Source: Candidatus Falkowbacteria bacterium
Lineage (GTDB): Bacteria; Patescibacteriota; Patescibacteriia; Patescibacteriales; WJLG01
Length of the DNA stretch: 64,000 nt
Reading direction: 5' to 3'
NCBI GenBank assembly: GCA_963747695.1
Contig: CAVVFV010000001.1
Location: 36,466-100,465 of the forward strand
Shown in pieces: positions 5,291-62,809 of the stretch. Under the pieces are notes generated by a model. The model was given only the letters and a program-made list of their open reading frames with translations, was not told the DNA's origin and did no database searches. Both the position numbers and the translations under genes were made by a program. Numbering within the stretch: position 1 is the first letter of the stretch; every line of letters begins with the position of its first letter.

Positions 5291-6628
5291 ATGACAAATG
5301 AAAATTGGCCAAAATTTCCAGAAAAGCAAAAGCAACAAATATTCCCTAACGTGGCAGAAAAATTTACCAATGGTTATCCTACGGGATACCGTCCTTGGTT
5401 GTCGGGCTGGTCATTTCAACCCGATGAATTAAAAGAGAAGCTCCCGGACGGGACATACAAGCTGCTAACCTTGGATGTTTCCATCTCCAATGAAAAATGG
5501 GCTGAATCAATGAATGCGATAGAAGATACGGGGGAGCGGTCAAAAGAGATTAAACAATCATATCCTTGCCCGAATGGGTGCGCGCATTGTTATGAGCGCG
5601 GCGCGGATACGGACAACCATATATTAAGCTGGGAAGAAAATAAAAAAATAGTCGATCAGGCCTGTGAGTTAGGGCTAAAAACCGTTAAATTCCTCGGCCC
5701 CGGAGAAATAATAAACAATCCAGATTTATTCAAATATTTGGATTATTTTGAAGAAAAAGGATTAGCTTTTGGCATTTTCACTAAGCCAGCGATTTTGCTT
5801 GACGAGAATGAATCGCAAAAAGTTTTTGGGATTTCCTCGGAAGAATTATGCAAAAAAATCGCCAGCTACAAGTGCGTACGCTTGCTGATGAATTTCACCT
5901 CCGCGGATCCGGAAACTGAGGTAAAAATGGTTGCCCCGAAAAATCCGGATTTTGCTAAGACGTTCGCTGAGAATAGGAATAGGGCGATTGAACTTTTCAG
6001 CAAATTAGGTATGAACGATGATCCTGATAATCAAAGGCTAGCCTTGGTATGCGCCCCGGTTTTGAAAAGTAATATCGATGAAGTGCTTGAAATCTTCAAA
6101 TGGGGAACAAAACGGAATATCCCGGTCGTCGTGGCGCCGACGATGGTCAGCGGCGGATGCTCTGAAAGCCAAGAAGAAGTCAAAGATGCTAAATTCAAAG
6201 ATGAACATTTAGTCGATCTTTGGGCGGATATTTATTCCTGGCTGATCAAGGAAGGATTGATGACTTCGGAGCAATTGAAAAAAGAAGGAGTGGCTCCTTA
6301 CGCCGGGTTTGCTTGTGATCAATTCATCAGCGGAATGTTTATCCGTAAAGACGGACGCGTCCAGGCTTGCCCGGGCAACGAAACAAAAGGTTTTCGGTAT
6401 TCAAAAAATATCATCGGCGATAATCTTGAAGAAATTTGGAAAAACAGTATGGGCTATAAAATGAGAAAAGCAATGGTTGAGACTGGGGAAATCAAACAGC
6501 TTGGCTGTCCCGCCAAACAGCCCGGTCTGGCGATTAAAGACGGCGAGCCATTGATAAAGGAAGGATGCGGCTCTTTCCCTGAAGATTTTGGCAATAAAGT
6601 TTTGGCAAAAGTGCAAGAAAAATTATAA
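5291..6628 (+). CDS. radical SAM enzyme with Cys-rich C-terminal (SPASM/twitch-like) region
   Basis: CPNGCAHCY is the CxxxCxxC radical-SAM cluster motif. The C-terminus carries extra cysteines (FACDQF, ACPGN, LGCPAK, EGCGSF). Confidence 0.75.
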   Translation: MTNENWPKFPEKQKQQIFPNVAEKFTNGYPTGYRPWLSGWSFQPDELKEKLPDGTYKLLTLDVSISNEKWAESMNAIEDTGERSKEIKQSYPCPNGCAHCYERGADTDNHILSWEENKKIVDQACELGLKTVKFLGPGEIINNPDLFKYLDYFEEKGLAFGIFTKPAILLDENESQKVFGISSEELCKKIASYKCVRLLMNFTSADPETEVKMVAPKNPDFAKTFAENRNRAIELFSKLGMNDDPDNQRLALVCAPVLKSNIDEVLEIFKWGTKRNIPVVVAPTMVSGGCSESQEEVKDAKFKDEHLVDLWADIYSWLIKEGLMTSEQLKKEGVAPYAGFACDQFISGMFIRKDGRVQACPGNETKGFRYSKNIIGDNLEEIWKNSMGYKMRKAMVETGEIKQLGCPAKQPGLAIKDGEPLIKEGCGSFPEDFGNKVLAKVQEKL

Positions 6629-13971: not shown

Positions 13972-14230
13972 AAATCTTCTTCCGGTGCCGACTACCGCCA
14001 GGGGGATGCTTTCCGGAAGAGAATGGGCGAGAGACGCCCACTTGATAAAGACCTTTGGGGGTGTGACCGGGGTTATAGCCGAAATTCCTCAGACCGTGCG
14101 TAATCAGGTACTTCATAATTCCTCCTTGGCTTATGGTAAAATATACTTGAAATATCTATATTAAATTCAAAATGAGCAGTCTGCTAATAATAGCATAAAG
14201 ATGCTTGGAAGTCAATAGCACAAGGTAATG

Positions 14231-15210
14231 TGCACACACATATTGCACTTTCTGCTAATCTGGGGGCATATGTCAAAAACTATGCCCAAATCAACCAAAG
14301 AAGAGAAATATCGCTGGATCAAGCCAATCCTGAACGGTGAAATGACAATTAAGCTGATGGCGGCGGTCTGTCCGTTCAGCGAGAGGGCGCTGAAGTACTG
14401 GCTGGCCGATTTTCGGGAGCATGGGATAGCAGGGCTGGAGAATAGATCAACGCGCCCCAAATCGCAGCCGAACGAAACGCCGATCAGGATCAAAGAACGG
14501 ATAATCGAGCTGCGGAAGGAAACAAAACTCTGCGCCAAGAAGCTGAACTACAAATTGAAAAAAGAGAATATAATAATCGATGACCGGACGATCGGCAAGA
14601 TCATCAAGACGGAAGGATTGGTGAGAAAATACCGGATCAGGAAAATTAAATATAAATATTTAAAAATTCCCCTGGCCAAAGGCGATCTGGTGGAGATTGA
14701 TATTAAATTCGTGCCTGATTTGATTGAGCAGAAACGCTATTTCCAATTTACCGCCATTGATTGCGCGACGAGGTGGCGATACCTGAAAATTTACGATGAC
14801 GCGGGCAGCGCCGAAGCGATCGATTTTTTGAATGAATTGCTAAATATCACGGAGTTCCGAATTAGAGCGATCAAAACCGACAATGGCAGCTGTTTCACCA
14901 ACCGCTACACCGGCTACCAGAAATCAGTCAATCCGTTCAACCCGCGATTGCATCCGCTCGATCTGTTCTGCCAGAGAAACAACATTCTGCATTACCTCAT
15001 TGATCCGGGCAAACCGGCCCAGAACGGACGGGTGGAACGCAGCCACCGGACCGACCAGGAGATGTTTTACGATAGACGGAAATTTAAAACTGTCTTAGGA
15101 TTGAAGCGGGCGATCAGGAAATGGAATATTAATTACAATAATTTAGAACATTGCGCCCTGGATGGATTAACGCCGAACGAGGCGTTGGCTGGAGTGCAAA
15201 ATGTCTGTGC
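14231..15210 (+). mobile_element. IS481-family-like insertion sequence with imperfect terminal inverted repeats
   Basis: Left end gcacacacatattgcact (14232-14249) matches the reverse complement of the right end agtgcaaaatgtctgtgc (15193-15210) at 16 of 18 positions. A single transposase ORF fills the element. Confidence 0.7.
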
Positions 15211-15214
15211 CTAA
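14270..15214 (+). CDS. DDE transposase (N-terminal HTH plus rve integrase core), IS481-like
   Basis: VEIDIKFVP...QFTAIDCATRW...IKTDNGSCFTN...NGRVERSHRTDQE give the D, D, E spacing of the rve core. The likely start is MSKTMPKST at 14270. Confidence 0.8.
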   Translation: MSKTMPKSTKEEKYRWIKPILNGEMTIKLMAAVCPFSERALKYWLADFREHGIAGLENRSTRPKSQPNETPIRIKERIIELRKETKLCAKKLNYKLKKENIIIDDRTIGKIIKTEGLVRKYRIRKIKYKYLKIPLAKGDLVEIDIKFVPDLIEQKRYFQFTAIDCATRWRYLKIYDDAGSAEAIDFLNELLNITEFRIRAIKTDNGSCFTNRYTGYQKSVNPFNPRLHPLDLFCQRNNILHYLIDPGKPAQNGRVERSHRTDQEMFYDRRKFKTVLGLKRAIRKWNINYNNLEHCALDGLTPNEALAGVQNVCA

Positions 15215-15650: not shown

Positions 15651-17069
15651 ATGGATAAAATATTCTCATTCATTAAGAAACTAATCCCGAAAAAAATCTT
15701 TAATGCGCTTCAGTCGCCTTATCATTATCTTTTAAGCTGGACATCGGCTTTATTCAATGGCTTTCCGACGGAAAAGATGATCGTGATTGGCATTACGGGG
15801 ACGATCGGCAAGACGACCACCGCTTATTTATTATTGCGCACTTTGAAAGAGTGCGGGTTTAAGGTTGGGCTATCTTCGACGGCTGTTTTTGATGATGGCA
15901 ACAAAGAATGGTTGAACGATAAACGGATGACGATGGTCGGGAGATTTTTTCTCCAAGGATTGTTGGCGAAGATGGTGAAGAACGGCTGCCAGTTCGCGAT
16001 CGTCGAAACTACTTCCGAAGGGATCCGCCAGTACCGGCATAAATTCATCAATTATGATTGGCTGATCTTTACCGGCTTATATCCCGAACACGTGGAATCA
16101 CACGGCGGTTTTGAAAATTATAAAAAAGCCAAGGGAAAATTATTCGAACATTTGAAGGATTGTAAGATTAAATATGTCGATGATATATTCAAAGTCTGCG
16201 ATCAGGCCAGCTGTCTGCAAAAAACCGATTTGAAGCGGATCAAGAAAACCGTGGTCGGCAATCTTGACGATGAGAATGCCAATTACTTCTTGTCTTTTTG
16301 GGCGGAAGAAAAAATCGGTTTTACGACGCGAGAAAAAGTTGATATCTTGGGTGAGAATCTGCCGGAAAATCTGCAAGTGGAAAAATACGGCGAGATCGAA
16401 ACCGAGCCCGATGGCGTTTCTTTCCAGGCTTTTGGCGAAAAAATCCAATTATCTTTGCTGGGTGAATTCAATGCCGCCAATGCCATGGCCGCCGCTTGCG
16501 CGGCCAGATTGGCAGTAAAAAATATCGAAGGAATTAAGGCTGGTTTAAAAAGCGTCAAGGGCGTGGCCGGCCGGATGGAAAAGATCGATGAAGGCCAGCC
16601 GTTCACGGTAATCGTCGATTATGCTTTTGAACCTAATTCTCTGGCTAAGATTTACGATGTGATTGAAAAATTTCCGCATAACCGGATTATCAACGTTTTC
16701 GGCGCGGCCGGCGGCGGGCGCGATGCCTCACGGCGGCCGAAAATGGGATTGCTTACTGGCAAGCGGGCCGATTACGTAATTGTCACTAATGAAGATCCAT
16801 ATGACGATGATCCGTTATTGATTATCGAACAGATCGCGGTCGGTGCGGAAAAAGAAGGCAAGAAAGTGAATTTAGACCTATTTAAAATACCTGACCGCCG
16901 CGAAGCGATCCGCCAAGCGATTAGCATCGCCGAAGAAGGGGATTTGGTTTTGATCTCCGGGAAGGGGAGCGAGCAATTGATGATGATGGCCAATGGCGAA
17001 AAAATCCCCTGGGACGACCGCGCGGTGGCGAGAGAAGAAATAAAAAAACTCATAACGCGTAACTCATAA
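15651..17069 (+). CDS. murE: Mur ligase family protein, MurE-like
   Basis: GITGTIGKTTT P-loop, YPEHVESHGGFENYKKAKGKLF, VTNEDPYDDDP (compare the DNPR motif region). The assignment to MurE rather than another Mur ligase is tentative. Confidence 0.7.
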   Translation: MDKIFSFIKKLIPKKIFNALQSPYHYLLSWTSALFNGFPTEKMIVIGITGTIGKTTTAYLLLRTLKECGFKVGLSSTAVFDDGNKEWLNDKRMTMVGRFFLQGLLAKMVKNGCQFAIVETTSEGIRQYRHKFINYDWLIFTGLYPEHVESHGGFENYKKAKGKLFEHLKDCKIKYVDDIFKVCDQASCLQKTDLKRIKKTVVGNLDDENANYFLSFWAEEKIGFTTREKVDILGENLPENLQVEKYGEIETEPDGVSFQAFGEKIQLSLLGEFNAANAMAAACAARLAVKNIEGIKAGLKSVKGVAGRMEKIDEGQPFTVIVDYAFEPNSLAKIYDVIEKFPHNRIINVFGAAGGGRDASRRPKMGLLTGKRADYVIVTNEDPYDDDPLLIIEQIAVGAEKEGKKVNLDLFKIPDRREAIRQAISIAEEGDLVLISGKGSEQLMMMANGEKIPWDDRAVAREEIKKLITRNS

Positions 17070-17102
17070 CGCGTAACGGGGTGCAGTCGGGGAGCTTATT
17101 TT

Positions 17103-17204
17103 AAAAAGTCCCCTCCTCGGGAGGGGTGGCTCGCGCCGCGCGAGACGGGGAGGGTCTATGCCTGACATTATTTTTTTGTCATCCCGAGTCCCTGACGAGG
17201 GATC
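17103..17204 (+). repeat. GC-rich modular hairpin element, copy A
   Basis: aaaaagtcccctcctcgggagg...gggtctatgcctgacattatttttttgtcatcccgag..gggatc. It shares modules with copies at 17891-18022 (inverted) and 22262-22402. Confidence 0.7.
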
Positions 17205-17317
17205 TATTTTTCGATAGATAGAATTTTATATATAGCCGAATTTTTTTTCTAACCTTGACTTTTTACGGGGGAGGTGGTAAAATTAAAACAGTAAAATTAA
17301 CTATTAATTGAAAATTT

Positions 17318-17605
17318 ATGAATTTTGAAGCAATGCCAAATCAAACAGATGATAACTCCAATAAAATTAACGAACTTGCGGCAAATAAGTTGGCGGATAA
17401 TTCCGCTGAAAAATTTTTGGAATTGAAACAAGAGTCAGCAAAGATTGATGAACGAATGAAATTGTTAGAAAAAGAACGCGCTATGATTGATGAACAAATG
17501 GAATTGTTAGAAAAAGAACGCGCAGAGTTAAAAGAGAAAGCGGTTGAAGCAAAAAAAGATTACGAAGAAAAATATGATAAATCTAGGCACGCTAATTTTT
17601 TGTAA
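17318..17605 (+). CDS. hypothetical coiled-coil protein (95 aa) with internal 42-nt duplication
   Basis: IDERMKLLEKERAM / IDEQMELLEKERAE are encoded by two 42-nt units at 17444-17527. Confidence 0.4.
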   Translation: MNFEAMPNQTDDNSNKINELAANKLADNSAEKFLELKQESAKIDERMKLLEKERAMIDEQMELLEKERAELKEKAVEAKKDYEEKYDKSRHANFL

Positions 17606-17890
17606 ATTTTTTAAGTTACCAATAAAAAAATCACCGGTAAATAAGCTAGTGATTTATTTATATTTTAATAAATAAATTTTCCTTGTAGCGCGCATTGGAA
17701 AATTTCCGTTAAATCACGCAGCGTTGAAACCGTGCAAAATTTCAGTGTTTGAGCTTGCGCCGCGCAAGCGAGTTTGAAATTTTGCTAGGTTTCCTAGCGG
17801 AGTGATAGGAAATTTCCACCTGCGAGCAGTTTTTTGCGCCACTTTTTTTAAAAAAAGTGGCAAAGATGTTTGATAATCTTGGAAGTACCA

Positions 17891-18022
17891 GATCCTTCGC
17901 GCGGCGCTCAGGATGACAAAAAATAATGTCGGAAATAGACCCACCCAGATTCCGCGGCGGAATCACCCCTCCTCCCGCACGCTATCGCTTTGCGGTACAA
18001 GCGAGGAGGAACATAATTTTTT
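17891..18022 (-). repeat. GC-rich modular hairpin element, copy B (inverted relative to copy A)
   Basis: The reverse complement reads aaaaaattatgttcctcctcgc...gggaggagg...gggtctatttccgacattattttttgtcatcctgag..aggatc. Confidence 0.7.
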
Positions 18023-18190
18023 CGACCTTATCAGTTTTTCGACTAAGTACCTAATCAACTAATTAACTAATCTGTGGATAACCTGTTGTCAAGTGATAAT
18101 AAATTTACTTTTTGTCAATCAAAAAAGCCATTTTTTATTCTAAGATTAGGTAAATTTGACAGATATCCTCAAATGGCCATTGCGAAACGC

Positions 18191-18219
18191 TTGACAGGGT
18201 GATATTTAGTTGCTAACAT
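18191..18219 (+). promoter_or_regulatory. sigma70-like promoter in the rpoB upstream region
   Basis: TTGACA (18191-18196), a 17-nt spacer, then TAACAT (18214-18219). Confidence 0.4.
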
Positions 18220-18543
18220 TGAGGCACATAAGTTCAGATTCTTCTCATGAGCTTCGAGCTCATTTTTATTCACTTTAAAAGCACTTCCACCGTTTTTTTC
18301 CGACGTTGGAACGTCTTCAAAGGTGATCTATTTAACCAAAATAATTTAACGTCGTTCTAAAACTCAAACCTACATAAAAGGCTTTGAGGTTTTTTTGTCG
18401 TTTAGCGGGTATTTTTTTGCGCCCAGTGTTTTAGTGCCAGGATTTTCAAGGGTTTTTGTCGGAGGATTTTTCTGAAAGATTCAATCGGTCAAGCCATTAA
18501 TTTTGAATATAATTTTTTTAATTAAAAATATTTATTTATATTT

Positions 18544-21500
18544 ATGTCTACCAAAAACGTTCCTAAGGAATTTATCGTCACTGGTACCGGGCGCCGTCTC
18601 TTCACTCACGGCAAGGATATTCTGGAGATGCCGGATCTGATCGAGATGCAGAAGGATTCTTATAAATGGTTCGCCAAAGAAGGTTTGGCTGAACTGTTCG
18701 ACGAGATTTCGCCGATCACCGATTTTATCGGTAGGGATTTGGAACTTTATTTTGAGGAGTTTTATTTGGACGAGCCCAAGTTCGACGAAAAACAATCCCG
18801 CTCCAAGAATATCACTTACGAAGCTCCGTTGCGCGTCAAAACCCGCTTGCTCAACAAGCGCACCAAAGAAGAGACTTCGCAGGAAGTTTTCTTGGGCGAT
18901 TTTCCCTTGATGACCCAGAACGGGACGTTTATCGTCAACGGCATCGAAAGAGTCGTCGTTTCACAATTGATCCGTTCCGCCGGCGTTATTTTCTCGGCCG
19001 AATTCATCAAGGGCAAGAAATATTACGGCGCCAAGATCATTCCGAACCGCGGCGCTTGGTTGGAAATTGAAACTGACGTGAATAAAGTCATCTGGGTGCG
19101 TATCGATCGCAAAAGAAAAGTCGCCGTCACTTCTCTGTTGAGAGCTTTCGGGTATGAGACTGACGAATCGTTGATCAATTTATTCAAAGATATCGACATT
19201 GTCCGCCGCGGCGAAGAGGAACAGACGCACATCGAAGCGACGATCGGCAAGGATGCTGCTCATAATGAAGAAGAAGGTCTTGAAGAAGTTTACAAAAAAA
19301 TCCGCCCGGGCGATCTGGCCAACCCGGAAAACGCCAAGTCTTTGATCTATTCGATGTTCTTCCGCTTCGATCGCTATGATTTCGGCCGCGTTGGTCGTTA
19401 TAAATTAAATCGCCGTTTTGGCGAAGGCTTGCCGGTTAATAAGGAAACCCGCGTTTTGCGCAAGGAAGATCTGGTGAATATCGTCCGCGAAGTCATCCGC
19501 TTGAATATCACCCAAGAGCCGGAAGATGATATCGATCACTTGTCCAACCGCCGCGTCCGCGCCATCGGCGAACTGATCCAGAACCGTTTCCGCGTCGGTC
19601 TGGCGAGAATGGAACGCATCGTCAAAGACCGGATGTCCACCGCCGATATCCATACTTTAACGCCGAACAAGCTGATCAATGCCCGTCCGGTTATTTCGGT
19701 TGTCAAAGAATTTTTTATGTCTTCACAGTTGTCGCAATTTATGGATCAGACCAATCCGCTGGCTGAACTTGAACATAAAAGAAGATTGTCGGCGATGGGC
19801 CCGGGCGGTTTGACCCGCGAGCGCGCCGGCTTCGATGTCCGCGATGTGCACACCACGCACTACGGCCGCATCTGTCCGATCGCCACTCCGGAAGGTCCGA
19901 ACATCGGTTTGGTCGGCCACTTGGCCAGTTTCTCCCGCTTGAATTCTTACGGATTTTTGGAAGCGCCGTATCGGAAAGTGATGCATGATTTGGAAACCAA
20001 CGATAAAGAACTTCCCGGTAATATCACCCGCGAGGACGTTTATGAAATAAAAGACGCGGAATTGCCGCTCGGCAAAAAGCATATTTTAATGGCGGATGTG
20101 CCGGCCAACAAGAAAGGCAAAGTGCTCGTCAAAGCGGGAGAAAAAATCACTCATGAAGACGCGAAGACCATCAAAGATAAAGTGAACGCGAAAGTTTTGA
20201 TCCCGGTCGTACCGAAAGTCACCGACGAGATCGTCTATCTGGACGCTTTTGAAGAAGAAAAATTCATTTCCACTGCCGCCACCACGCCGATCGACGAGAA
20301 CGGCCATTTTATGGTGGCCACTTGCGAAGTGAGAAAATTCAACGAGCCGACCACGGCCGGCGTCGAGCAAGTCGATTTGTTCGGAGTCGCCGCCAATCAG
20401 ATCATTTCCATCGCCACTTCTTTGATTCCGTTTATGGAACATAACGACGGCCAGCGCGCCCTGATGGGTACGAACATGCAGCGCCAAGCCGTACCGTTGA
20501 TGGTGGCCGAATCGCCGATCGTCGGCACCGGCGCGGAAGAACGCGCCGCCCGCGATTCCGGCCATGAGATCATTTCTTTGGAAGAAGGCGAAGTCACTTT
20601 TGTCGACGCCGCTAAGATAATCGTTCGCAATAAGAAAGGTGAAGATAAGATTTATGAATTGACCAAATTTTTGCGCTCGAACGCTTCGACCTGTATCAAC
20701 CAGCGTCCGATCGTTTCACTCGGCGACCATGTCAAAAAGCACCAGGTGCTTTCCGACGGTCCGGTGATCGACAAAGGCGAATTAGCTTTGGGCAAGAACG
20801 TCCTGATCGCTTTCATGGTTTGGGAAGGTTTCAACTACGAAGATGCGGTGATCGTTTCCGAACGGATGGTCCGCGATGACATCTTCACTTCCATATATAT
20901 TGAGAACTACACTGTTGATGTCCGCGACACCAAGCTTGGTCCGGAATTGATCACCAATGATATTCCGAATATCTCCGAAGAAAAATTGAAGAACTTGGAC
21001 GAGAACGGTGTGATCCGCATCGGCGCCGAAGTTTCCTCCGGCGATATCTTGGTCGGTAAAATCACCCCGAAGGGCGAAACCGAATTATCGGCGGAAGAAA
21101 AATTACTGCGCGTCATCTTCGGCGAAAAAGCCAAAGACGTCCGCGACTCTTCTTTGTATCTCGAACACGGCGAACACGGCAAAGTGGTTGATATCAAATA
21201 TTTTTCCCGCGAAGCTGGCGATAAATTAGCTGCCGGCGTCATCCAATCGATCCAGGTTTCCGTCGCCAATCTGCGCAAGATCCAGGTCGGCGATAAAGTT
21301 GCCGGTCGCTACGGCAATAAGGGTGTTATTTCCCGCGTGGTCGCTGCCGAAGATATGCCATATATGGAAGACGGCACGCCGATCGACGTCATTTTATCTC
21401 CTTTGGGTATTATTTCTCGTATGAATTTGGGCCAGACTTTGGAAGTCCATTTGGGTTTTGCCGCCAAGAAATTGGGCTATAAAGTCGCGACTCCGGCCTT

Positions 21501-22107
21501 GAACGGCATTGGCGAGGAAAAGATCAAAGAAGAATTGCTCCGCGCCGGTTTGCCGATTGACGGCAAGATCGCTCTCTTCGATGGAAAAACCGGCCTGCCT
21601 TATGAAAATAAAGTTGTCGTCGGAATGAAGTATTTGCTGAAATTAAATCATATGGTCGAAGATAAGATGCACCAGCGCTCCATTGGTCCTTATTCTTTGA
21701 TCACCCAGCAGCCGTTGGGCGGCAAGGCGCAATTCGGCGGCCAGCGCTTCGGAGAAATGGAAGTCTGGGCTTTGGAAGGCTATGGCGCCGCGCATACTTT
21801 GCAGGAAATTTTGACGATCAAATCCGATGATGTCCCGGGACGTTCCGCCGCTTACGAATCGATCATCAAGGGCGAGAAGATCAATAAGGTCAACGTGCCG
21901 GAATCGTTTAATGTCTTAGTGCGCGAATTGAAAGGTTTATGCCTGGACGTCCAGCTCTTGGGCGAAAAGCGTTCCGAAGGCGAGGAAGGACCTCGGGACC
22001 GCGACGATGTCCGCCGCTCCAATCAGGACCGCCGGATCGAAGCCACTGATAAGCCGGGATGGGGGAAAGAAACTGGTGAAGAAAAGTCTGAAAAGAAGGA
22101 AGAATAA
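18544..22107 (+). CDS. rpoB: DNA-directed RNA polymerase subunit beta
   Basis: Full-length match to RpoB hallmarks (FMDQTNPLAELEHKRRLSAMGPGGL, NMQRQAVP, GDKVAGRYGNKGV, GGQRFGEMEVWALE). Confidence 0.98.
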   Translation: MSTKNVPKEFIVTGTGRRLFTHGKDILEMPDLIEMQKDSYKWFAKEGLAELFDEISPITDFIGRDLELYFEEFYLDEPKFDEKQSRSKNITYEAPLRVKTRLLNKRTKEETSQEVFLGDFPLMTQNGTFIVNGIERVVVSQLIRSAGVIFSAEFIKGKKYYGAKIIPNRGAWLEIETDVNKVIWVRIDRKRKVAVTSLLRAFGYETDESLINLFKDIDIVRRGEEEQTHIEATIGKDAAHNEEEGLEEVYKKIRPGDLANPENAKSLIYSMFFRFDRYDFGRVGRYKLNRRFGEGLPVNKETRVLRKEDLVNIVREVIRLNITQEPEDDIDHLSNRRVRAIGELIQNRFRVGLARMERIVKDRMSTADIHTLTPNKLINARPVISVVKEFFMSSQLSQFMDQTNPLAELEHKRRLSAMGPGGLTRERAGFDVRDVHTTHYGRICPIATPEGPNIGLVGHLASFSRLNSYGFLEAPYRKVMHDLETNDKELPGNITREDVYEIKDAELPLGKKHILMADVPANKKGKVLVKAGEKITHEDAKTIKDKVNAKVLIPVVPKVTDEIVYLDAFEEEKFISTAATTPIDENGHFMVATCEVRKFNEPTTAGVEQVDLFGVAANQIISIATSLIPFMEHNDGQRALMGTNMQRQAVPLMVAESPIVGTGAEERAARDSGHEIISLEEGEVTFVDAAKIIVRNKKGEDKIYELTKFLRSNASTCINQRPIVSLGDHVKKHQVLSDGPVIDKGELALGKNVLIAFMVWEGFNYEDAVIVSERMVRDDIFTSIYIENYTVDVRDTKLGPELITNDIPNISEEKLKNLDENGVIRIGAEVSSGDILVGKITPKGETELSAEEKLLRVIFGEKAKDVRDSSLYLEHGEHGKVVDIKYFSREAGDKLAAGVIQSIQVSVANLRKIQVGDKVAGRYGNKGVISRVVAAEDMPYMEDGTPIDVILSPLGIISRMNLGQTLEVHLGFAAKKLGYKVATPALNGIGEEKIKEELLRAGLPIDGKIALFDGKTGLPYENKVVVGMKYLLKLNHMVEDKMHQRSIGPYSLITQQPLGGKAQFGGQRFGEMEVWALEGYGAAHTLQEILTIKSDDVPGRSAAYESIIKGEKINKVNVPESFNVLVRELKGLCLDVQLLGEKRSEGEEGPRDRDDVRRSNQDRRIEATDKPGWGKETGEEKSEKKEE

Positions 22108-22261
22108 AATGCTAAATGCTAAATGATGAATGCTAAATTGTTCATCGAATAGTATTCTCAAATACTCCGCCTCAAAAATTATAAATTATAGATTATAAAT
22201 TATAAATTTGGGGCGGGGGATTGAGGATGATATAGGAAGTAAGAAGTAAAAAGTAATAAGT

Positions 22262-22402
22262 AAAAAAGTCCCCTCCTCGGGAGGCCCGCCTACGCTAAAA
22301 CTACGGCAGGGCAAGGGTGGCCCATCTTAAAAAAGACAGCTTGCCCAACGAAGCTCCGCCACGGAGCGAAGTTGGGGGGTGGGTCTATTCCCGACAATAT
22401 TA
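22262..22402 (+). repeat. GC-rich modular hairpin element, copy C
   Basis: aaaaagtcccctcctcgggagg...(expanded middle)...gggtctattcccgacaatatt. Confidence 0.65.
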
Positions 22403-22476
22403 ATTTCAAATTTTCAATTTTCAAATAATTTTTCAATTTGTAAATTTTAATTTTTTTGCGCTACGGGCAATAATTG

Positions 22477-22506
22477 CGTCGCAGTCCCGAGGCGGAGACT
22501 GCGACG
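22477..22506. repeat. 'gcagtc' GC hairpin, copy 1
   Basis: cgtcgcagtc-ccgaggcgga-gactgcgacg is a perfect 10-bp stem. The same loop with a compensated stem occurs at 54754-54783. Confidence 0.7.
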
Positions 22507-22642
22507 GAACCAAATTATTAATTTTGTAATTTTTAAAGAAATCATAATTTTTAATTTTTAGATTATTTTTCGACTCTTTTAAAAATTGAGCCTTAAAAAT
22601 TGTTTAAAAATTAAAAATTATAAAATTAAAAATTTTATATCT

Positions 22643-26575: not shown

Positions 26576-26625
26576 TTTATAGATTTTTATTAAAAGCAAC
26601 CTTAACCATTGGTTTGAATTCTGAA

Positions 26626-26709
26626 ATTGTTATATTGTTATATTGCTATATTGTTAATGATTTTTAAAATCATTGCACAACAATATGACAATATAACAAT
26701 ATGGCAATG
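26626..26709. repeat. family A ('caatat') long hairpin
   Basis: The left arm has TTGNTATA 8-mers (ttgttatattgttatattgctatattgtt). The right arm has TATANCAA 8-mers (aacaatatgacaatataacaatatggcaa). Confidence 0.8.
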
Positions 26710-30028: not shown

Positions 30029-30078
30029 ATAGGTAATCAATATCCCGATTAGTCGGGATTGTTTTAATAACACAAAAA

Positions 30079-30162
30079 ATTGTTATATTGTTATATTGCT
30101 ATATTGTTAGGAGCTCATAAATCCAACAATATGACAATATAACAATATGGCAATATAGCAAT
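30079..30162. repeat. family A ('caatat') long hairpin
   Basis: attgttatattgttatattgctatattgtt...aacaatatgacaatataacaatatggcaatatagcaat. The arms are nearly identical to the 26626 copy. Confidence 0.8.
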
Positions 30163-31289: not shown

Positions 31290-31300
31290 AGAAAAAGAGA

Positions 31301-31383
31301 TTGCTATATTGTCATATTGTTATATTGTTGCGCAACGATAGTAACAATTTCGGCAATATAACAATATAGCAATATAACAATAT
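31301..31383. repeat. family A ('caatat') long hairpin
   Basis: ttgctatattgtcatattgttatattgttgcgcaac...cggcaatataacaatatagcaatataacaatat. It ends 6 nt before the fusA ATG. Confidence 0.8.
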
Positions 31384-31389
31384 TTTTTT

Positions 31390-33477
31390 ATGCCTCGAGA
31401 CTACGCCTTAGACAAAGTAAGAAATATCGGTATCATGGCTCACATCGACGCCGGAAAAACAACCTTTTCCGAGCGTGTGCTTTTTTATACCGGCAAGAAA
31501 CATAAGATCGGCGAAGTGCACGAGGGCGCGGCGGAAATGGACTGGATGGAACAGGAAAAAGAGCGCGGCATCACCATCACTTCCGCGGCCACGACTTGTT
31601 TTTGGAAAGACCATAAGATCAACTTGATCGATACTCCCGGCCACGTGGATTTTACCGTTGAAGTGGAGCGCTCGCTCCGCGTTTTGGACGGCGCCATCGC
31701 TGTCTTTGACGGCTCGCAGGGCGTGGAACCGCAATCGGAAACTGTCTGGCGTCAGGCTGATAAATACGGCGTGCCTCGTTTGTGTTTCATCAACAAGATG
31801 GATAAGATGGGTGCGGATTTTTATATGAGCTTGGAATCGATCCAGAAACGTCTTAATGATAAAGCAGTCGCAATCCAATTGGCGATCGGCGCCGAAGGAA
31901 CTTTTACCGGCGTGATCGATTTGATTGTGATGAAGGCTTTTAAATTTGAAGGAAACTTCGGTGAGAAAATAGTGGAAATGGAAATTCCGGCTGACTTGAA
32001 AGAGAAAGCGGAAAAATATCGCGTTGAATTAGTGGAAAAGGCCGCGGAGTGCGACGAAAAAACTACTGAAAAATATTTGGGCGGCGAAGAGATTACCGTT
32101 GAAGAATTAAAAGCCGCGATCAGAAAAGGCGTGATCGCCAATCAGCTTTATCCGGTTTTGTGCGGTACGGCTTTGCAGAATATCGGCGTGCAGCTGGCTT
32201 TGGATGCGGTGGTTGCTTATTTGCCTTCTCCGTTGGATGTGAAAGCTATCGTGGCTACCGATGTTGATGATTTGGAAAAGAAGATCGAAGTAAAAGTCGC
32301 TGATAATGAACCGTTCGTCGGTCTGGCGTTTAAGATCGCCACCGATCCTTTTGTCGGCAAGCTTTGTTTTGTCCGCGTTTATTCGGGAATTCTCGAAGCC
32401 GGCACTTATGTTTTGAATGCTAACACTGGAAATAAAGAACGCATCGGCCGCATCGTCCGGATGCACGCCAATCACCGCGAAGAAGCCGCGGATGTCTGTG
32501 CTGGAGATATCGCCGCCGTGGTCGGTTTGAAAGCCACGACCACCGGCAATACTTTGTGCGACGAACGCCGTCCGGTCCTTTTGGAAAGCATCGTCTTCCC
32601 GGAACCGGTCATTAAGATCGCGGTCGAACCGAAAACCAAAGTCGATCAGGAAAAGATGGGTGTTGCCTTGCAGAAATTGGCTGAAGAAGATCCGACTTTC
32701 CGAGTCGAGACTGATGAAGAAACCAACCAGACTTTGATCTCCGGGATGGGCGAATTGCATTTGGATATCATCGTTGACCGGATGCGCCGTGAATTCGGCG
32801 TCGAAGCTAACGTCGGCAAGCCGCAAGTATCTTATCGTGAAACGATCCGCAAAGAAGCGGAGGCGGAAGGAAAATATATCAAACAGTCGGGCGGACGCGG
32901 CCAATACGGCCATTGCGTGCTGCGCATGGAACCGAATGAAACCGGCAAGGGTTTTGAATTCTTGAATGAAACCAAGGGCGGCTCGATTCCTAGAGAATTT
33001 ATTCCGGCGATTGAAAAGGGCGTTAAGGAAGCTTTGAATCAGGGCGTGGTCGCGGGTTATCCGATGGTCGATTTCAAAGTCGCCGTCACCGATGGCAGCT
33101 ACCACGAAGTCGACTCTTCCGAAATCGCCTTTAAGATGGCGGCCATCATGGGTTTCCGCGAGGCTTCCCGCAAAGCCGATCCGATTTTGCTTGAACCGAT
33201 AATGAAAGTTGAAGTCGTTACGCCGGAAGAATATATGGGCAATGTGGTGGGCGATTTGAATTCCCGCCGCGGCCAGATCGATGAAATGTCCCAACGCGGC
33301 AATGCCAAGGTTATCGACGCCAAGGTGCCGTTAGCCGAAATGTTCGGCTACGTCACTGAATTACGTTCGATGTCCCAGGGCCGCGCCACTTCGACGATGG
33401 AATTTTTCGAATATAAAGAAGTGCCAAGGAATGTGCTGGAAAAGATCAAAGAAGGGAAGAGCGGGACGAGTAAATAA
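31390..33477 (+). CDS. fusA: elongation factor G
   Basis: [22 protein letters not shown], and full-length EF-G architecture. Confidence 0.98.
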
Positions 33478-33483
33478 TTTTAA

Positions 33484-33566
33484 ATTGTTATATTGCTATA
33501 TTGTCATATTGTTAAAAGTTTTTTTTCGTTGCGCAACAATATAACAGTATAACAATATAGCAATTG
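33484..33566. repeat. family A ('caatat') long hairpin
   Basis: attgttatattgctatattgtcatattgtt...gcgcaacaatataacagtataacaatatagcaat. Confidence 0.8.
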
Positions 33567-60615: not shown

Positions 60616-60654
60616 ACTTATTGCGATAAATATAATATAATTTAAACAAACTAA

Positions 60655-60728
60655 TGTTATATTGTCATATTGTTATATTGTTACGCAACGATTTAAAAAT
60701 GTTTAACAATATAGCAATATAACAATAT
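60655..60728. repeat. family A ('caatat') long hairpin
   Basis: tgttatattgtcatattgttatattgttacgcaacg...aacaatatagcaatataacaatat. Confidence 0.8.
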
Positions 60729-60740
60729 AAATAAATATTT

Positions 60741-62446: not shown

Positions 62447-62535
62447 AATATTATGTCGCGGTTAGCCGCCTGGAGGCGGCATTTTTAGTAAAAAGCTCGC
62501 TAACGAATCGAAAATATAACTTCGAAAATTGAAAT

Positions 62536-62735
62536 GCCGTTGTAGCTCAGCTGCCCCGCCCACTGATGGGGCGGGGTAAAGTTGAGCATCTCGGGTTCAT
62601 GCAATTTTAGAGTTATTCAGGAAAAAATATAGTTTGCCGTTGTAGCTCAGCTGCCCCGCCCACTGATGGGGCGGGGTAAAGTTGAGCATCTCGGGTTCAT
62701 GCAATTTTAGAGTTATTCAGGAAAAAATATAGTTT
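62536..62735 (+). repeat. two perfect 100-bp tandem repeats, each a truncated tRNA-Thr copy with a GC hairpin inserted in the D-loop
   Basis: Units 62536-62635 and 62636-62735 are identical. Each begins gccgttgtagctcagctg (the first 18 nt of the tRNA), followed by ccccgcccactgatggggcgggg. Confidence 0.9.
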
Positions 62736-62808
62736 GCCGTTGTAGCTCAGCTGGTAGAGCACCTCCATGGTAAGGAGGGGGTCTCGGGTCCGATTCCCGA
62801 CAACGGCT
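62736..62808 (+). tRNA. tRNA-Thr (anticodon GGT)
   Basis: Hand-folded cloverleaf of 73 nt. The acceptor stem is gccgttg/caacggc, the D stem gctc/gagc, the anticodon stem cctcc/ggagg with loop atGGTaa, and the T stem tcggg/cccga. CCA is not encoded. Confidence 0.85.
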
Positions 62809-62809
62809 C

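Follow-up and report, generated by a model that had tools for sequence, protein, structure and literature searches.

GC-rich hairpin modules around rpoB are most likely solo copies of a repeat that bounds DUF559 nuclease cassettes in related genomes

What are the GC-rich hairpin elements on either side of rpoB (18544-22107, + strand) in the window, the 64,000-nt stretch of DNA analysed here? Two of them, copies A and B, lie as an inverted pair between the Mur ligase gene (called murE here; 15651-17069, + strand) and rpoB, and a third, copy C, lies in the rpoB-rpoC spacer. The sequence-only reading, whose described sequences are all present where it placed them, had taken A and B either for a MITE-like or cassette-like unit around a small coiled-coil ORF or for members of a structured RNA family. 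The elements most likely represent a GC-rich, modular DNA repeat of Patescibacteria-type genomes in its 'solo' form, without a gene. In all three, a conserved hairpin (P1) and a variable GC hairpin (P2) accompany the core GGGTCTATNNCNGACAWTATT. With up to two mismatches, the core pattern GGGTCTATNCCNGACA matches the 64-kb window exactly three times (at 17152, at 17942 on the minus strand and at 22381; expected 0.16), an unfiltered covariance-model search of the window found no module copy beyond A, B and C, and a tblastn search of it for a DUF559 gene found none.

Module A, of the canonical 'left-end' type, starts 39 nt after the murE stop codon in the orientation of that gene (17108-17172, + strand; 93.9 bits with covariance model R1). 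Its pyrimidine strand CCCCTCC (17110-17116) is followed by the loop TCG and the purine strand GGGAGGGG (17119-17126), then by P2 (CTCGCG-ccg-CGCGAG, 17130-17144), a mirror third strand GGGGAGGG (17147-17154) in which eight of eight triads are valid, and the core and tail GGGTCTATGCCTGACATTATT (17152-17172). Module B, likewise of the left-end type, lies upstream of rpoB in the opposite orientation (17921-18012, - strand; 48 bits) and has an expanded P1, whose loop holds a ~26-nt insert between the pyrimidine strand TCCTCCTC (18010-18003) and the purine strand GGGAGGAGGGG (17976-17966); P2 (GATTCCG-ccg-CGGAATC, 17964-17948), the third strand GGGTGGG (17946-17940) and the core (17942-17927) follow on the same strand. 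This expanded subtype also occurs at the orthologous site in L167, and in L170. Module C, downstream of rpoB and oriented with it (22268-22402, + strand; 39.8 bits), shares P1 and core with A and B around an expanded middle, as had been proposed, ~95 nt of extra hairpins separating the two. It consists of a pyrimidine strand (22270-22276), the purine strand GGGAGG (22279-22284), inserted hairpins (22285-22343), a long P2 (CCCAAC-GAA-GCTCCG-cca-CGGAGC-GAA-GTTGGG, 22344-22376), the third strand GGGTGGG (22377-22383) and the core GGGTCTATTCCCGACA (22381-22396); its L125 ortholog (5404-5474) has the canonical short P2. By inspection, modules B and C contain six to seven valid triads. A tRNA origin of the core was considered, given the resemblance of GGGTCTATTCCCGACA to the T-arm of the window's tRNA-Thr, and was rejected, as random tiles of the window score equally.

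Beyond the window, the module belongs to a multi-copy family with at least 77 distinct copies in metagenome relatives. A metagenome scan with a pattern that demands the left-end tail yielded 53 loci, most of them from a few metagenomes (Ga0182021/Ga0182027), so that the copies are not phylogenetically independent; over 322 kb, the covariance model gave 95 matches, or 89 distinct sequences, 77 of which could be parsed into blocks. The 15-base core pattern proved too unspecific as a query of the genome collection, where it returned 116 loci, nearly all of them chance and one real (L070), and no match was found in the viral contigs, a collection in which the element is therefore not carried by phages. 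The modules are short extragenic palindromes that occur as singlets and as inverted doublets, and in left-end copies the mirror tract, whose middle base is free (A, T or C), is followed by TCTATNCCNGACATTATT. In the larger alignment P2 covaries strongly, as does the terminal hairpin described below, and P1 is invariant. The P2 stems of four to seven GC pairs, closed by a 3-nt loop that is most commonly CCG, comprise 36 distinct alleles, almost all perfectly Watson-Crick, with double-sided changes in six of seven pairs; 95.6% of cells are paired, while shuffles pair in 81% of cells, none of 500 attaining the observed share, and slid registers in 57% or less.

In several relatives, inverted modules form the ~57-nt terminal inverted repeats of a cassette around a gene for a ~125-aa DUF559 (Vsr-like PD-(D/E)XK) endonuclease. 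L145, L164 (two cassettes) and L170 (two cassettes) each have a left module, the DUF559 ORF and an inverted right module overlapping the TAG stop codon. At L151, a site orthologous to the second L164 cassette, the ORF is internally deleted, and L128/L147, L140 and L152 are doublets that retain its last ~25 nt. The cassettes thus decay in situ by degrees: the full cassette gives way to one with a partly deleted ORF and then to a ~165-bp doublet. Solo ends predominate, and since the doublets keep ORF remnants, many gene-less copies derive from cassettes. The cassette ORF matches Pfam DUF559 (PF04480) at 3e-21; among solved structures it comes closest to 3hrl (6e-15) and, with weak similarity, to 3r3p (0.08), the homing endonuclease I-Bth0305I. 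To our knowledge, the very widespread DUF559 proteins have been assigned no role, and a 125-aa nuclease on its own is not a known transposase. With the protein as the starting point, such motifs were found to flank DUF559 genes in other phyla too: the homologs from Buchananbacteria, Collierbacteria, Ignavibacteriales and Margulisbacteria and from two further long contigs all adjoin C-tract/G-tract hairpins. Several of these hairpins are bona fide short-loop triplex motifs, and the Pro/Gly-rich extensions of over-called homologs are translated hairpins. No exact pair of filled and empty sites was found among the relatives, nor an empty site for copy C, where the L167 spacer is not alignable, and literature searches on DUF559 together with repeats returned nothing relevant.

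The cassette-like part of the earlier proposal therefore holds in relatives, where inverted copies bracket a gene and have internal-deletion derivatives, but the A-B segment is not one mobile unit with the coiled-coil ORF. This genome's 'cargo', the 95-aa coiled-coil-like ORF (17318-17605, + strand), is an orphan, a search of 5.8 billion proteins giving no homolog; it does carry the 42-nt internal duplication that had been noted (17443-17523, 1.9 copies, 94% match) and has a promoter-like site upstream (TTGACT-17-TAAAAT, 17255-17283). It is not, as had been supposed, alone between A and B: a copy of a separate ~230-bp repeat family (17668-17877, ~210 bp, - strand) also lies there, starting with the hairpin GCCACTTTTTTT/AAAAAAAGTGGC and possessing long imperfect palindromic ends. 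This repeat adjoins a module at other loci as well (L124, L128, L158), and its end, not module B, forms the B-side boundary of the variable cargo. In L167 and L156, modules A and B sit at these same two positions and enclose other genes, and the murE-rpoB slot holds the 95-aa ORF in the window, an SDR gene in L167, a 349-aa ORF in L156 and a 688-aa ORF in L160. The pair is therefore old, and its interior changes.

These observations bear directly on whether A and B bound a conventional MITE-like or composite transposon, with the 95-aa ORF as cargo and a transposase elsewhere, for example the IS481-type integrase at 14228-15214. The inverted arrangement, with P1 outward and core inward, is the geometry of the real DUF559 cassettes, and the rve-family integrase ORF lies 2 kb upstream, yet such a transposon is very improbable: A and B, of different subtypes, resemble each other to only about 60-70%, they stay in place in L167 and L156 as the genes between them change, the ORF occurs nowhere else, and no module-flanked transposase was found in 47 loci. 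Target-site duplications are also missing, no direct repeat flanking any of six cassettes or doublets. An integron attC cassette was rejected as well, the only integrase being of the IS481-type rve family and the module consensus having no GTTRRRY box.

Beside modules A and B lies a terminal hairpin with tandem GA steps: GTC-ATCCC-GA-GTC-cct-GAC-GA-GGGAT-C at A (17178-17204, + strand), followed by TATTTTT, and GTC-ATCCT-GA-GCG-ccg-CGC-GA-AGGAT-C at B (17891-17917, - strand). The pattern GTCATCCYGA..GARGGATC matches the window exactly at these two places (17178-17204 on the plus strand and 17917-17891 on the minus strand; expected 0.00). Both copies segment as ATCC(C/T)-GA-[GTC cct GAC | GCG ccg CGC]-GA-(G/A)GGAT, in which an outer stem of 5 bp encloses a tandem G.A/A.G internal loop and an inner stem of 3 bp capped by a 3-nt loop. 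The compensatory changes reported between them are real and recur in 10 copies from other loci, in which the variable outer pair is C:G in five, T:A in five and unpaired in none; 93.8% of cells are paired, a share that falls to 84.8% in shuffles and does not exceed 49% when the register is slid. The hairpin is a member of an independent tandem-GA hairpin repeat family, and this family and the 230-bp element are each separate from the module and combine with it in varying order. A hammerhead or K-turn identity was rejected because the sequence has no CUGANGA...GAAA core, and literature searches with the hairpin sequence returned nothing relevant.

The module contains a mirror repeat. The consensus, CCCCTCC-TCG-GGAGGGG...GGGGAGGG, consists of a pyrimidine block, a complementary purine block that pairs with it as P1, and a mirror purine block, P2 being inserted within loop 2; these are the three blocks of purine-motif triplexes, with G*G:C, A*A:T and T*A:T triads. 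In register, 147 of 157 triads (93.6%) are valid, in 20 distinct combinations, compared with 86.4% when third strands are permuted (0/5000 reach the observed value) and 61-68% in shifted registers, and 58 of 77 copies are perfect over eight triads. All three blocks covary between subfamilies (GAGAGGGG/GGGGTGTG, GGAGAGG/GGAGAGG and GGGGAGG/GGAGGGG). Loop 1, at 3 nt, agrees with the short loops of triplex motifs, but loop 2 does not, since it spans 17-25 nt with P2 and ~95 nt in copy C. As read from its sequence, the module matches the design of the BoxC/PIT/TMECO purine-motif intrastrand triplexes, and it may form such a triplex in vivo. A riboswitch-like long-range pairing of CCCCTCC with the downstream G-tract was rejected, since the middle base of that tract varies between A, T and C without a compensating change.

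The mirror rule also weighs on the proposal that the modules are transcribed structured RNAs, either stabilisers or terminators in the upstream gene's 3'-UTR or small ncRNAs of a family resembling whalefall-1, with P1, P2 and the terminal hairpin acting in RNA. An RNA 3'-end function would fit the orientation of the modules, which is that of the upstream ORF in 36 of 42 cases, many starting less than 10 nt past the stop codon, as well as the covariation in P2 and the terminal hairpin. Hairpin A is a GC-rich stem directly 5' of a T-run and was flagged as terminator-like, but this run lies 15-20 nt from the module's last strong stem, and the intrinsic-terminator layout of a GC stem plus U-run is absent from the module itself and from hairpin B. 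Whalefall-1 (RF01762), the best Rfam near-match, is curated as RNA and has the same two-hairpin layout, but it scores 15.7 bits, below its gathering score of 37, and neither the window nor 20 loci contained a match to any Rfam family at its gathering score. Folding z-scores are weak (-1.47 for A, -0.95 for B), P2 has no strand-specific G-U signature (TG 3 versus CA/AC 5 among 240 stem positions), and the right end of each cassette carries the module in reverse orientation. RNA pairing leaves unexplained the mirror repeat formed by the conserved third G-tract, whereas a purine-motif DNA triplex demands it, and purine-motif triplexes do not form in RNA (PMC4666352). The structured-RNA alternative offered by the sequence-only reading is thus the weaker one, and we consider it unlikely.

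The reading that we favour, with a probability slightly better than even (about 0.55), is that the modules are repeats structured at the level of DNA and tied to a selfish nuclease. The module would act as DNA rather than RNA, its hairpin or triplex structures being recognised or cut by the DUF559 nuclease, or else stalling replication. Repair by recombination between copies could then carry the nuclease gene from one module site to another, much as in homing, and the same repair might homogenise and swap P2 alleles and turn over the neighbouring DNA, with deletion of the DUF559 gene leaving doublets and solos. Such turnover would account for a gene content of the murE-rpoB and rpoB-rpoC spacers that differs from relative to relative, and for the GC-rich hairpin islands at the edges of variable gene slots in genomes that are very small and AT-rich.

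Known for some 30 years and linked to genome rearrangement, BoxC/PIT/TMECO repeats have stood unexplained since the 1990s; the BoxC and PIT work is reportedly that of Bachellier in the 1990s and of Hoyne and Maher in 2000. In E. coli, ycjD is followed after ~170 bp by TMECO no. 9 (1351239-1351204) in the same orientation, and a degenerate motif overlaps the ycjD stop codon; this link is a single gene, ycjD being an annotated DUF559 gene and the only one examined. TMECO loci are more rearranged among E. coli strains than others, and explicitly no mobility gene was found to be associated with the repeats (Holder et al., 2015, PMC4666352). It is possible, if doubtful, that the BoxC/PIT/TMECO repeats of E. 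coli and candidate-phyla bacteria are the cognate DNA ends or targets of DUF559 cassettes, and that DUF559 is a structure-recognising selfish nuclease whose activity spreads and homogenises the repeats and causes the instability of TMECO loci. If true, this would provide a function both for a large DUF family, including E. coli YcjD, and for a long-unexplained repeat class.

Alternatively, the modules could be DNA structural sites maintained by the host, such as G-quadruplexes or sites for a nucleoid or replication protein, beside which DUF559 genes insert opportunistically, the repeats being independent of the nuclease. Most module copies have no DUF559 gene nearby, and K-12 has 23 TMECO copies against the one DUF559 gene considered (Holder et al., 2015, PMC4666352). 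The module also offers four G3-4 tracts with 1-nt loops (GGG-A-GGGG ... GGGG-N-GGG), the middle base of the last tract being A, T or C, and G4 competes with the triplex in TMECO (Holder et al., 2015, PMC4666352). Against this, type-2 modules (GAGAGGGG/GGGGTGTG) have no four G3 tracts and still obey the mirror rule, and the precise cassette ends, the stop codon embedded in the right repeat and the ORF remnants in doublets do not suggest opportunistic insertion; a host-maintained site is accordingly improbable. Under the selfish-nuclease reading, two open questions merge into one bench-testable hypothesis, that DUF559 binds or cuts triplex-type structures. In this family, triplex-type hairpin repeats and DUF559 genes are physically joined and decay into MITE-like remnants. 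The repeat model R1, absent from Rfam, should help to avoid false ORFs and wrongly assigned N-terminal extensions in DUF559 proteins.

Among known systems, BoxC/PIT/TMECO repeats share with the module a C-rich tract, a complementary G-rich tract and a mirror G-rich tract, with G*G:C and A/T*A:T triads. They too are intergenic, multi-copy, sometimes in inverted pairs and unusually rearranged between relatives, loop 2 of TMECO type B is CCG, the commonest P2 loop, and one TMECO copy lies beside a DUF559 gene. They differ in sequence (CCCCTCC/GGGAGGGG/GGGGAGGG in the module, CCCTCNCCC/GGGNGAGGG/GGGNGAGGG in TMECO), and the TMECO consensus CCCTCNCCC-N3-6-GGGNGAGGG-N3-GGGNGAGGG is unmatched by the module, which has shorter stems (7-8 nt against 9), a conserved tail TCTATNCCNGACATTATT in addition and a covarying hairpin in its long loop 2. 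ITxF-type searches, which allow loops of 1-6 nt, would therefore miss it (the limits being 0-10 nt for Hoyne and 3 nt for TMECO loop 2; PMC4666352). The module forms the ends of DUF559 cassettes, whereas published TMECO work reports no mobility gene (PMC4666352). Whalefall-1 resembles the module in its CuCuCC...GGaGaG hairpin, its variable second hairpin and the GgGuGAGG tract after hairpin 2, and is an RNA motif from one metagenome only. MITEs share terminal inverted repeats and a graded internal-deletion series, but the cassettes have no recognised transposase or target-site duplication, and solo ends predominate. REP/BIME and REPIN-RAYT elements (PMC3337134, PMC3733652) are likewise short GC-rich palindromes after genes that form inverted doublets and mosaics with other repeats, and in REPIN-RAYT inverted repeats flank a single small enzyme gene without target-site duplications; the enzyme there is an HUH Y1 tyrosine transposase rather than a Vsr-like nuclease, and REPs lack the triplex-type blocks. 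The reverse strand of P2 reads CGTC-stem-loop-stem-CCA, with a head and tail resembling those of the CGTC-type REPs, for which no enzyme is known (PMC3337134, PMC3733652); the 8-9-bp stems of these REPs, their A-T pairs at the first two positions and their 4-5-nt loops differ from P2. Finally, the free-standing homing endonuclease I-Bth0305I (PMC3239194) is a small nuclease of Vsr-like fold from the same superfamily as DUF559, and VSR, DUF559 and DUF2726 form one clade (PMC3424549). The similarity of the cassette protein to I-Bth0305I is marginal (E = 0.08), no intron or intein accompanies the cassette protein, and it presumably targets a dispersed repeat, not a unique gene, but the invasion, decay and loss seen at orthologous DUF559 sites fit a homing life cycle.

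The three modules near rpoB, copies A (17108-17172, + strand), B (18012-17921, - strand) and C (22268-22402, + strand), are best supported as gene-less copies of the end module of a cassette encoding DUF559, a Vsr-like PD-(D/E)XK endonuclease family, with the module acting as DNA. The sequence-only reading was right that all three copies are real: they were seen when the sequence was read at 16800-18300 and 22150-22500, their core, GGGTCTATNCCNGACA, occurs three times in the window against 0.16 expected (two mismatches or fewer), and the terminal hairpin GTCATCCYGA...GARGGATC, noted in two of them, occurs twice against 0.00 expected. With flanking genes identified from Pfam, A lies 39 nt past the stop codon of a Mur ligase gene, B upstream of rpoB on the opposite strand, and C in the rpoB-rpoC spacer. 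A calibrated covariance model run without filters found no fourth copy in the 64 kb, Rfam returned no family at threshold, and the window contains no DUF559 gene; all three copies are solos, and A and B are both of left-end type. An IS481-type integrase ORF (rve, HTH_28/32; 14228-15214), just upstream of the Mur ligase gene, has no association with the modules. A resemblance of the module core GGGTCTATTCCCGACA (17152-17167) to the tRNA-Thr T-arm GGGTCCGATTCCCGACA (62785-62802) scored no better than random window tiles and is attributed to chance.

When reference genomes were first scanned for a 15-base pattern, nearly all matches were due to chance; the one true copy has a DUF559 ORF directly after it. 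This locus (L070, DATJQC010000011.1), on a contig labelled Candidatus Nanoarchaeia, holds a canonical module and a truncated DUF559 gene beside a bacterial-type iPGM gene, and could be a mis-binned contig or a cross-domain transfer. A second scan, of metagenome contigs with a stricter pattern of hairpin P1 and the core, picked out 53 loci, of which about 45 are real. The further copies sought as a check on the family were duly found, with 95 matches to the module covariance model R1 across 322 kb of metagenome loci. The repeat has a sharp left edge, (G/A)TCCCCTCC, and the consensus GTCCCCTCC-TCG-GGAGGGGTGG-[P2]-ACGGGGAGGGTCTATTCCCGACATTATT; the R1 matches comprise left-end modules, which have a tail, right-end modules, which end at GGGTCTAT, and a second subfamily, AATTCCCCTCTCGAGAGGGGTGG[P2]ACGGGGTGTGTTAA.

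The covariation proposed from the window copies recurs in the larger alignment. Among 41 copies, double-sided changes occur in six of the seven pairs of hairpin P2, and 95.6% of cells pair, against 81% when shuffled (0/500 reach the observed value) and no more than 57% when the register is slid; P1 is conserved and never covaries. The 36 distinct P2 alleles are almost all perfect Watson-Crick, and identical alleles reappear in unrelated contexts. The outer pair of the terminal GA hairpin, which adjoins A (17178-17204, + strand) and B (17917-17891, - strand), also covaries cleanly (C:G in 5 copies, T:A in 5). This hairpin is a repeat independent of the module, occurring without it at four metagenome loci (L124, L149, L153, L160) and in a Saccharibacteria MAG (L090); half-sites such as GTCATTGCGAG also exist (L153). 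The sequences of contigs L139 (12544-12570) and L159 (1333-1365) are identical as far as GTCATCCCG, which is the GA hairpin's 5' half, and then fully divergent; this is a rearrangement breakpoint within the hairpin. A further repeat family of ~230 bp (window 17668-17877; L124 477-709; L128 1883-2110; L158 8354-8580) has a perfect hairpin, GCCACTTTTTTT/AAAAAAAGTGGC, at its start and long, imperfect palindromic ends; it always adjoins a module or GA hairpin, on differing sides of the latter in the window and L124.

A left module precedes every DUF559 ORF in the metagenome module loci. In L145, L164 (two cassettes) and the Patescibacteria MAG locus L170 (two cassettes), the common layout is a left module, a DUF559 ORF (~125 aa) beginning within ~20 nt of it, and an inverted right module containing the TAG stop codon, so that the gene lies between ~57-nt terminal inverted repeats consisting of P1, P2 and GGGTCTAT. 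The catalytic D...ExD...H region of the protein aligned to PDB 3hrl (E = 6e-15), and the protein shows distant similarity to I-Bth0305I, a homing endonuclease with the Vsr fold (E = 0.08). At L151, a site orthologous to the second L164 cassette, the ORF is internally deleted, and ~165-bp doublets at L128/L147, L140 and L152 keep its final ~25 nt; full cassette, deleted ORF and doublet form a decay series of the MITE-producing kind. DUF559 may recognise or cleave the modules, and the spread of its cassettes may be homing-like.

The MITE-like or cassette-like character first suggested for the A-B segment belongs to relatives in which inverted modules bracket DUF559, and not to A...B itself as one mobile unit. 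Four relatives have murE and rpoB in common with the window at 74-85% DNA identity. In L167, A-like and B-like modules occupy the same two positions and enclose an SDR gene. L156 combines a remnant of A, truncated at its 5' end, with an ORF for a 349-aa secreted protein and a B-like module, and L160 has a 688-aa ORF between murE and rpoB without modules. The interval in the window, described as holding only a 95-aa ORF, also contains the ~210-bp repeat copy at 17668-17877, whose far end, not module B, is the cargo boundary on that side; the ORF does carry its reported 42-nt duplication. Because relatives keep the positions with different genes between them, and no homolog of the 95-aa ORF was found anywhere, A and B mark, as old and vertically inherited features, the edges of a slot with changing content. 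Between orthologous modules, entire P2 stems are swapped, and the L125 ortholog of C has a short canonical P2. The rpoB-rpoC spacer of L125 spans 5.4 kb with three modules, and in that of L167 a right-end module forms the end of an additional ~210-aa ORF. Another conserved GC hairpin, GTCGCAGTCCCGAGGCGGAGACTGCGAC, preceded by GCGCTACGGGCAATAATTGC (22450-22510), is common to L167, L125 and L156 at the orthologous spacer position.

Many other intergenic regions of the window hold three to four tandem 7-8-nt units (e.g. TTATATTG) followed by the same array reverse-complemented (26616-26708, 30077-30162, 31298-31387, 33474-33564, 60647-60740, and others), with AAGTAAAA, ATACGAA and ATTCGCG behaving likewise at other genes. 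At 62535-62734 and 62736-62809, beside tRNA-Thr(GGT), lies a perfect 2 x 100-nt tandem duplication, each unit of which starts with the first 18 nt of that tRNA gene before diverging into the hairpin CCCCGCCCACTGATGGGGCGGGG; this is an apparent series of 5' tRNA fragments that precedes the intact gene.

Following P2, the G-tract GGGGAGGG mirrors the P1 purine arm, GGGAGGGG, and is not complementary to it. The mirror rule extends to the other subfamilies, which pair GAGAGGGG with GGGGTGTG, GGAGAGG with GGAGAGG (here the pyrimidine arm is altered too) and GGGGAGG with GGAGGGG. Scored as purine-motif triads (G*G:C, A*A:T and T*A:T valid), 147/157 (93.6%) are valid in register, against 86.4% with third strands permuted among combinations (0/5000 reach 93.6%) and 61-68% with the register shifted by 1-2 nt; 58 of 77 copies are perfect. 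The modules may fold as a triplex. A role as RNA elements is a weaker explanation: 36 of 42 left-end modules are co-oriented with the upstream ORF, about 20 begin within 10 nt of its stop codon, and terminal hairpin A is terminator-like, but folding z-scores are weak, G-U is not in excess over C-A mismatches, right cassette ends use the module reversed, and RNA pairing leaves the mirror tract unexplained. The orientation bias may instead reflect dependence of the nuclease ORF on upstream read-through, since an ORF ~20 nt past the module without an obvious promoter may need it, and solos would inherit the placement.

Judged by sequence, the mirror three-block layout matches the defining architecture of the BoxC/PIT/TMECO intrastrand triplex repeats. 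Triplex folding of those repeats has been shown in vitro, and in E. coli the repeats show an association with rearranged loci; no mobility gene linked to them was found by the authors, according to whom RNA cannot form purine-motif triplexes (PMC4666352). A protein-first search recovered DUF559 homologs in Buchananbacteria (L172), Collierbacteria (L180), Ignavibacteriales (L175) and Margulisbacteria (L178) and on two long contigs (L181, L182); in every case C-tract/G-tract hairpins lie no more than ~60 nt from the gene, in most cases on both sides. The L172 flanks are textbook short-loop triplex motifs, inverted (CCTCCCCTC-ttt-GAGGGGAGG-aca-GGAGGGGTG), those of L181 and L182 are direct repeats, and the Pro/Gly-rich extensions of over-called homologs are translated hairpins. 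E. coli YcjD is the NCBIfam DUF559 equivalog, and TMECO no. 9 (1351239-1351204; Holder, Table 1, PMC4666352) is co-oriented with ycjD and lies ~170 bp downstream of it; a degenerate triplex motif overlaps the gene's stop codon, and a duplicated 3' fragment of ycjD separates the two motifs. A 16-bp perfect hairpin precedes ycjD (L183, E. coli K-12 1351039-1351830; and L184). Of 5426 complete E. coli genomes, 3346 carry the segment in full, and in about 38% it is missing or replaced; in those of the latter that were examined it is replaced, and homology returns ~45 nt past the motif. A general role for DUF559 as the missing partner of the BoxC/TMECO repeats is judged less likely than not. The module itself is best supported as a long-loop, hairpin-bearing variant of the BoxC/PIT triplex repeats, from which it differs in sequence, in its shorter stems (7-8 nt) and in a loop 2 of 17-25 nt containing P2, a length that would exclude it under the published search criteria.
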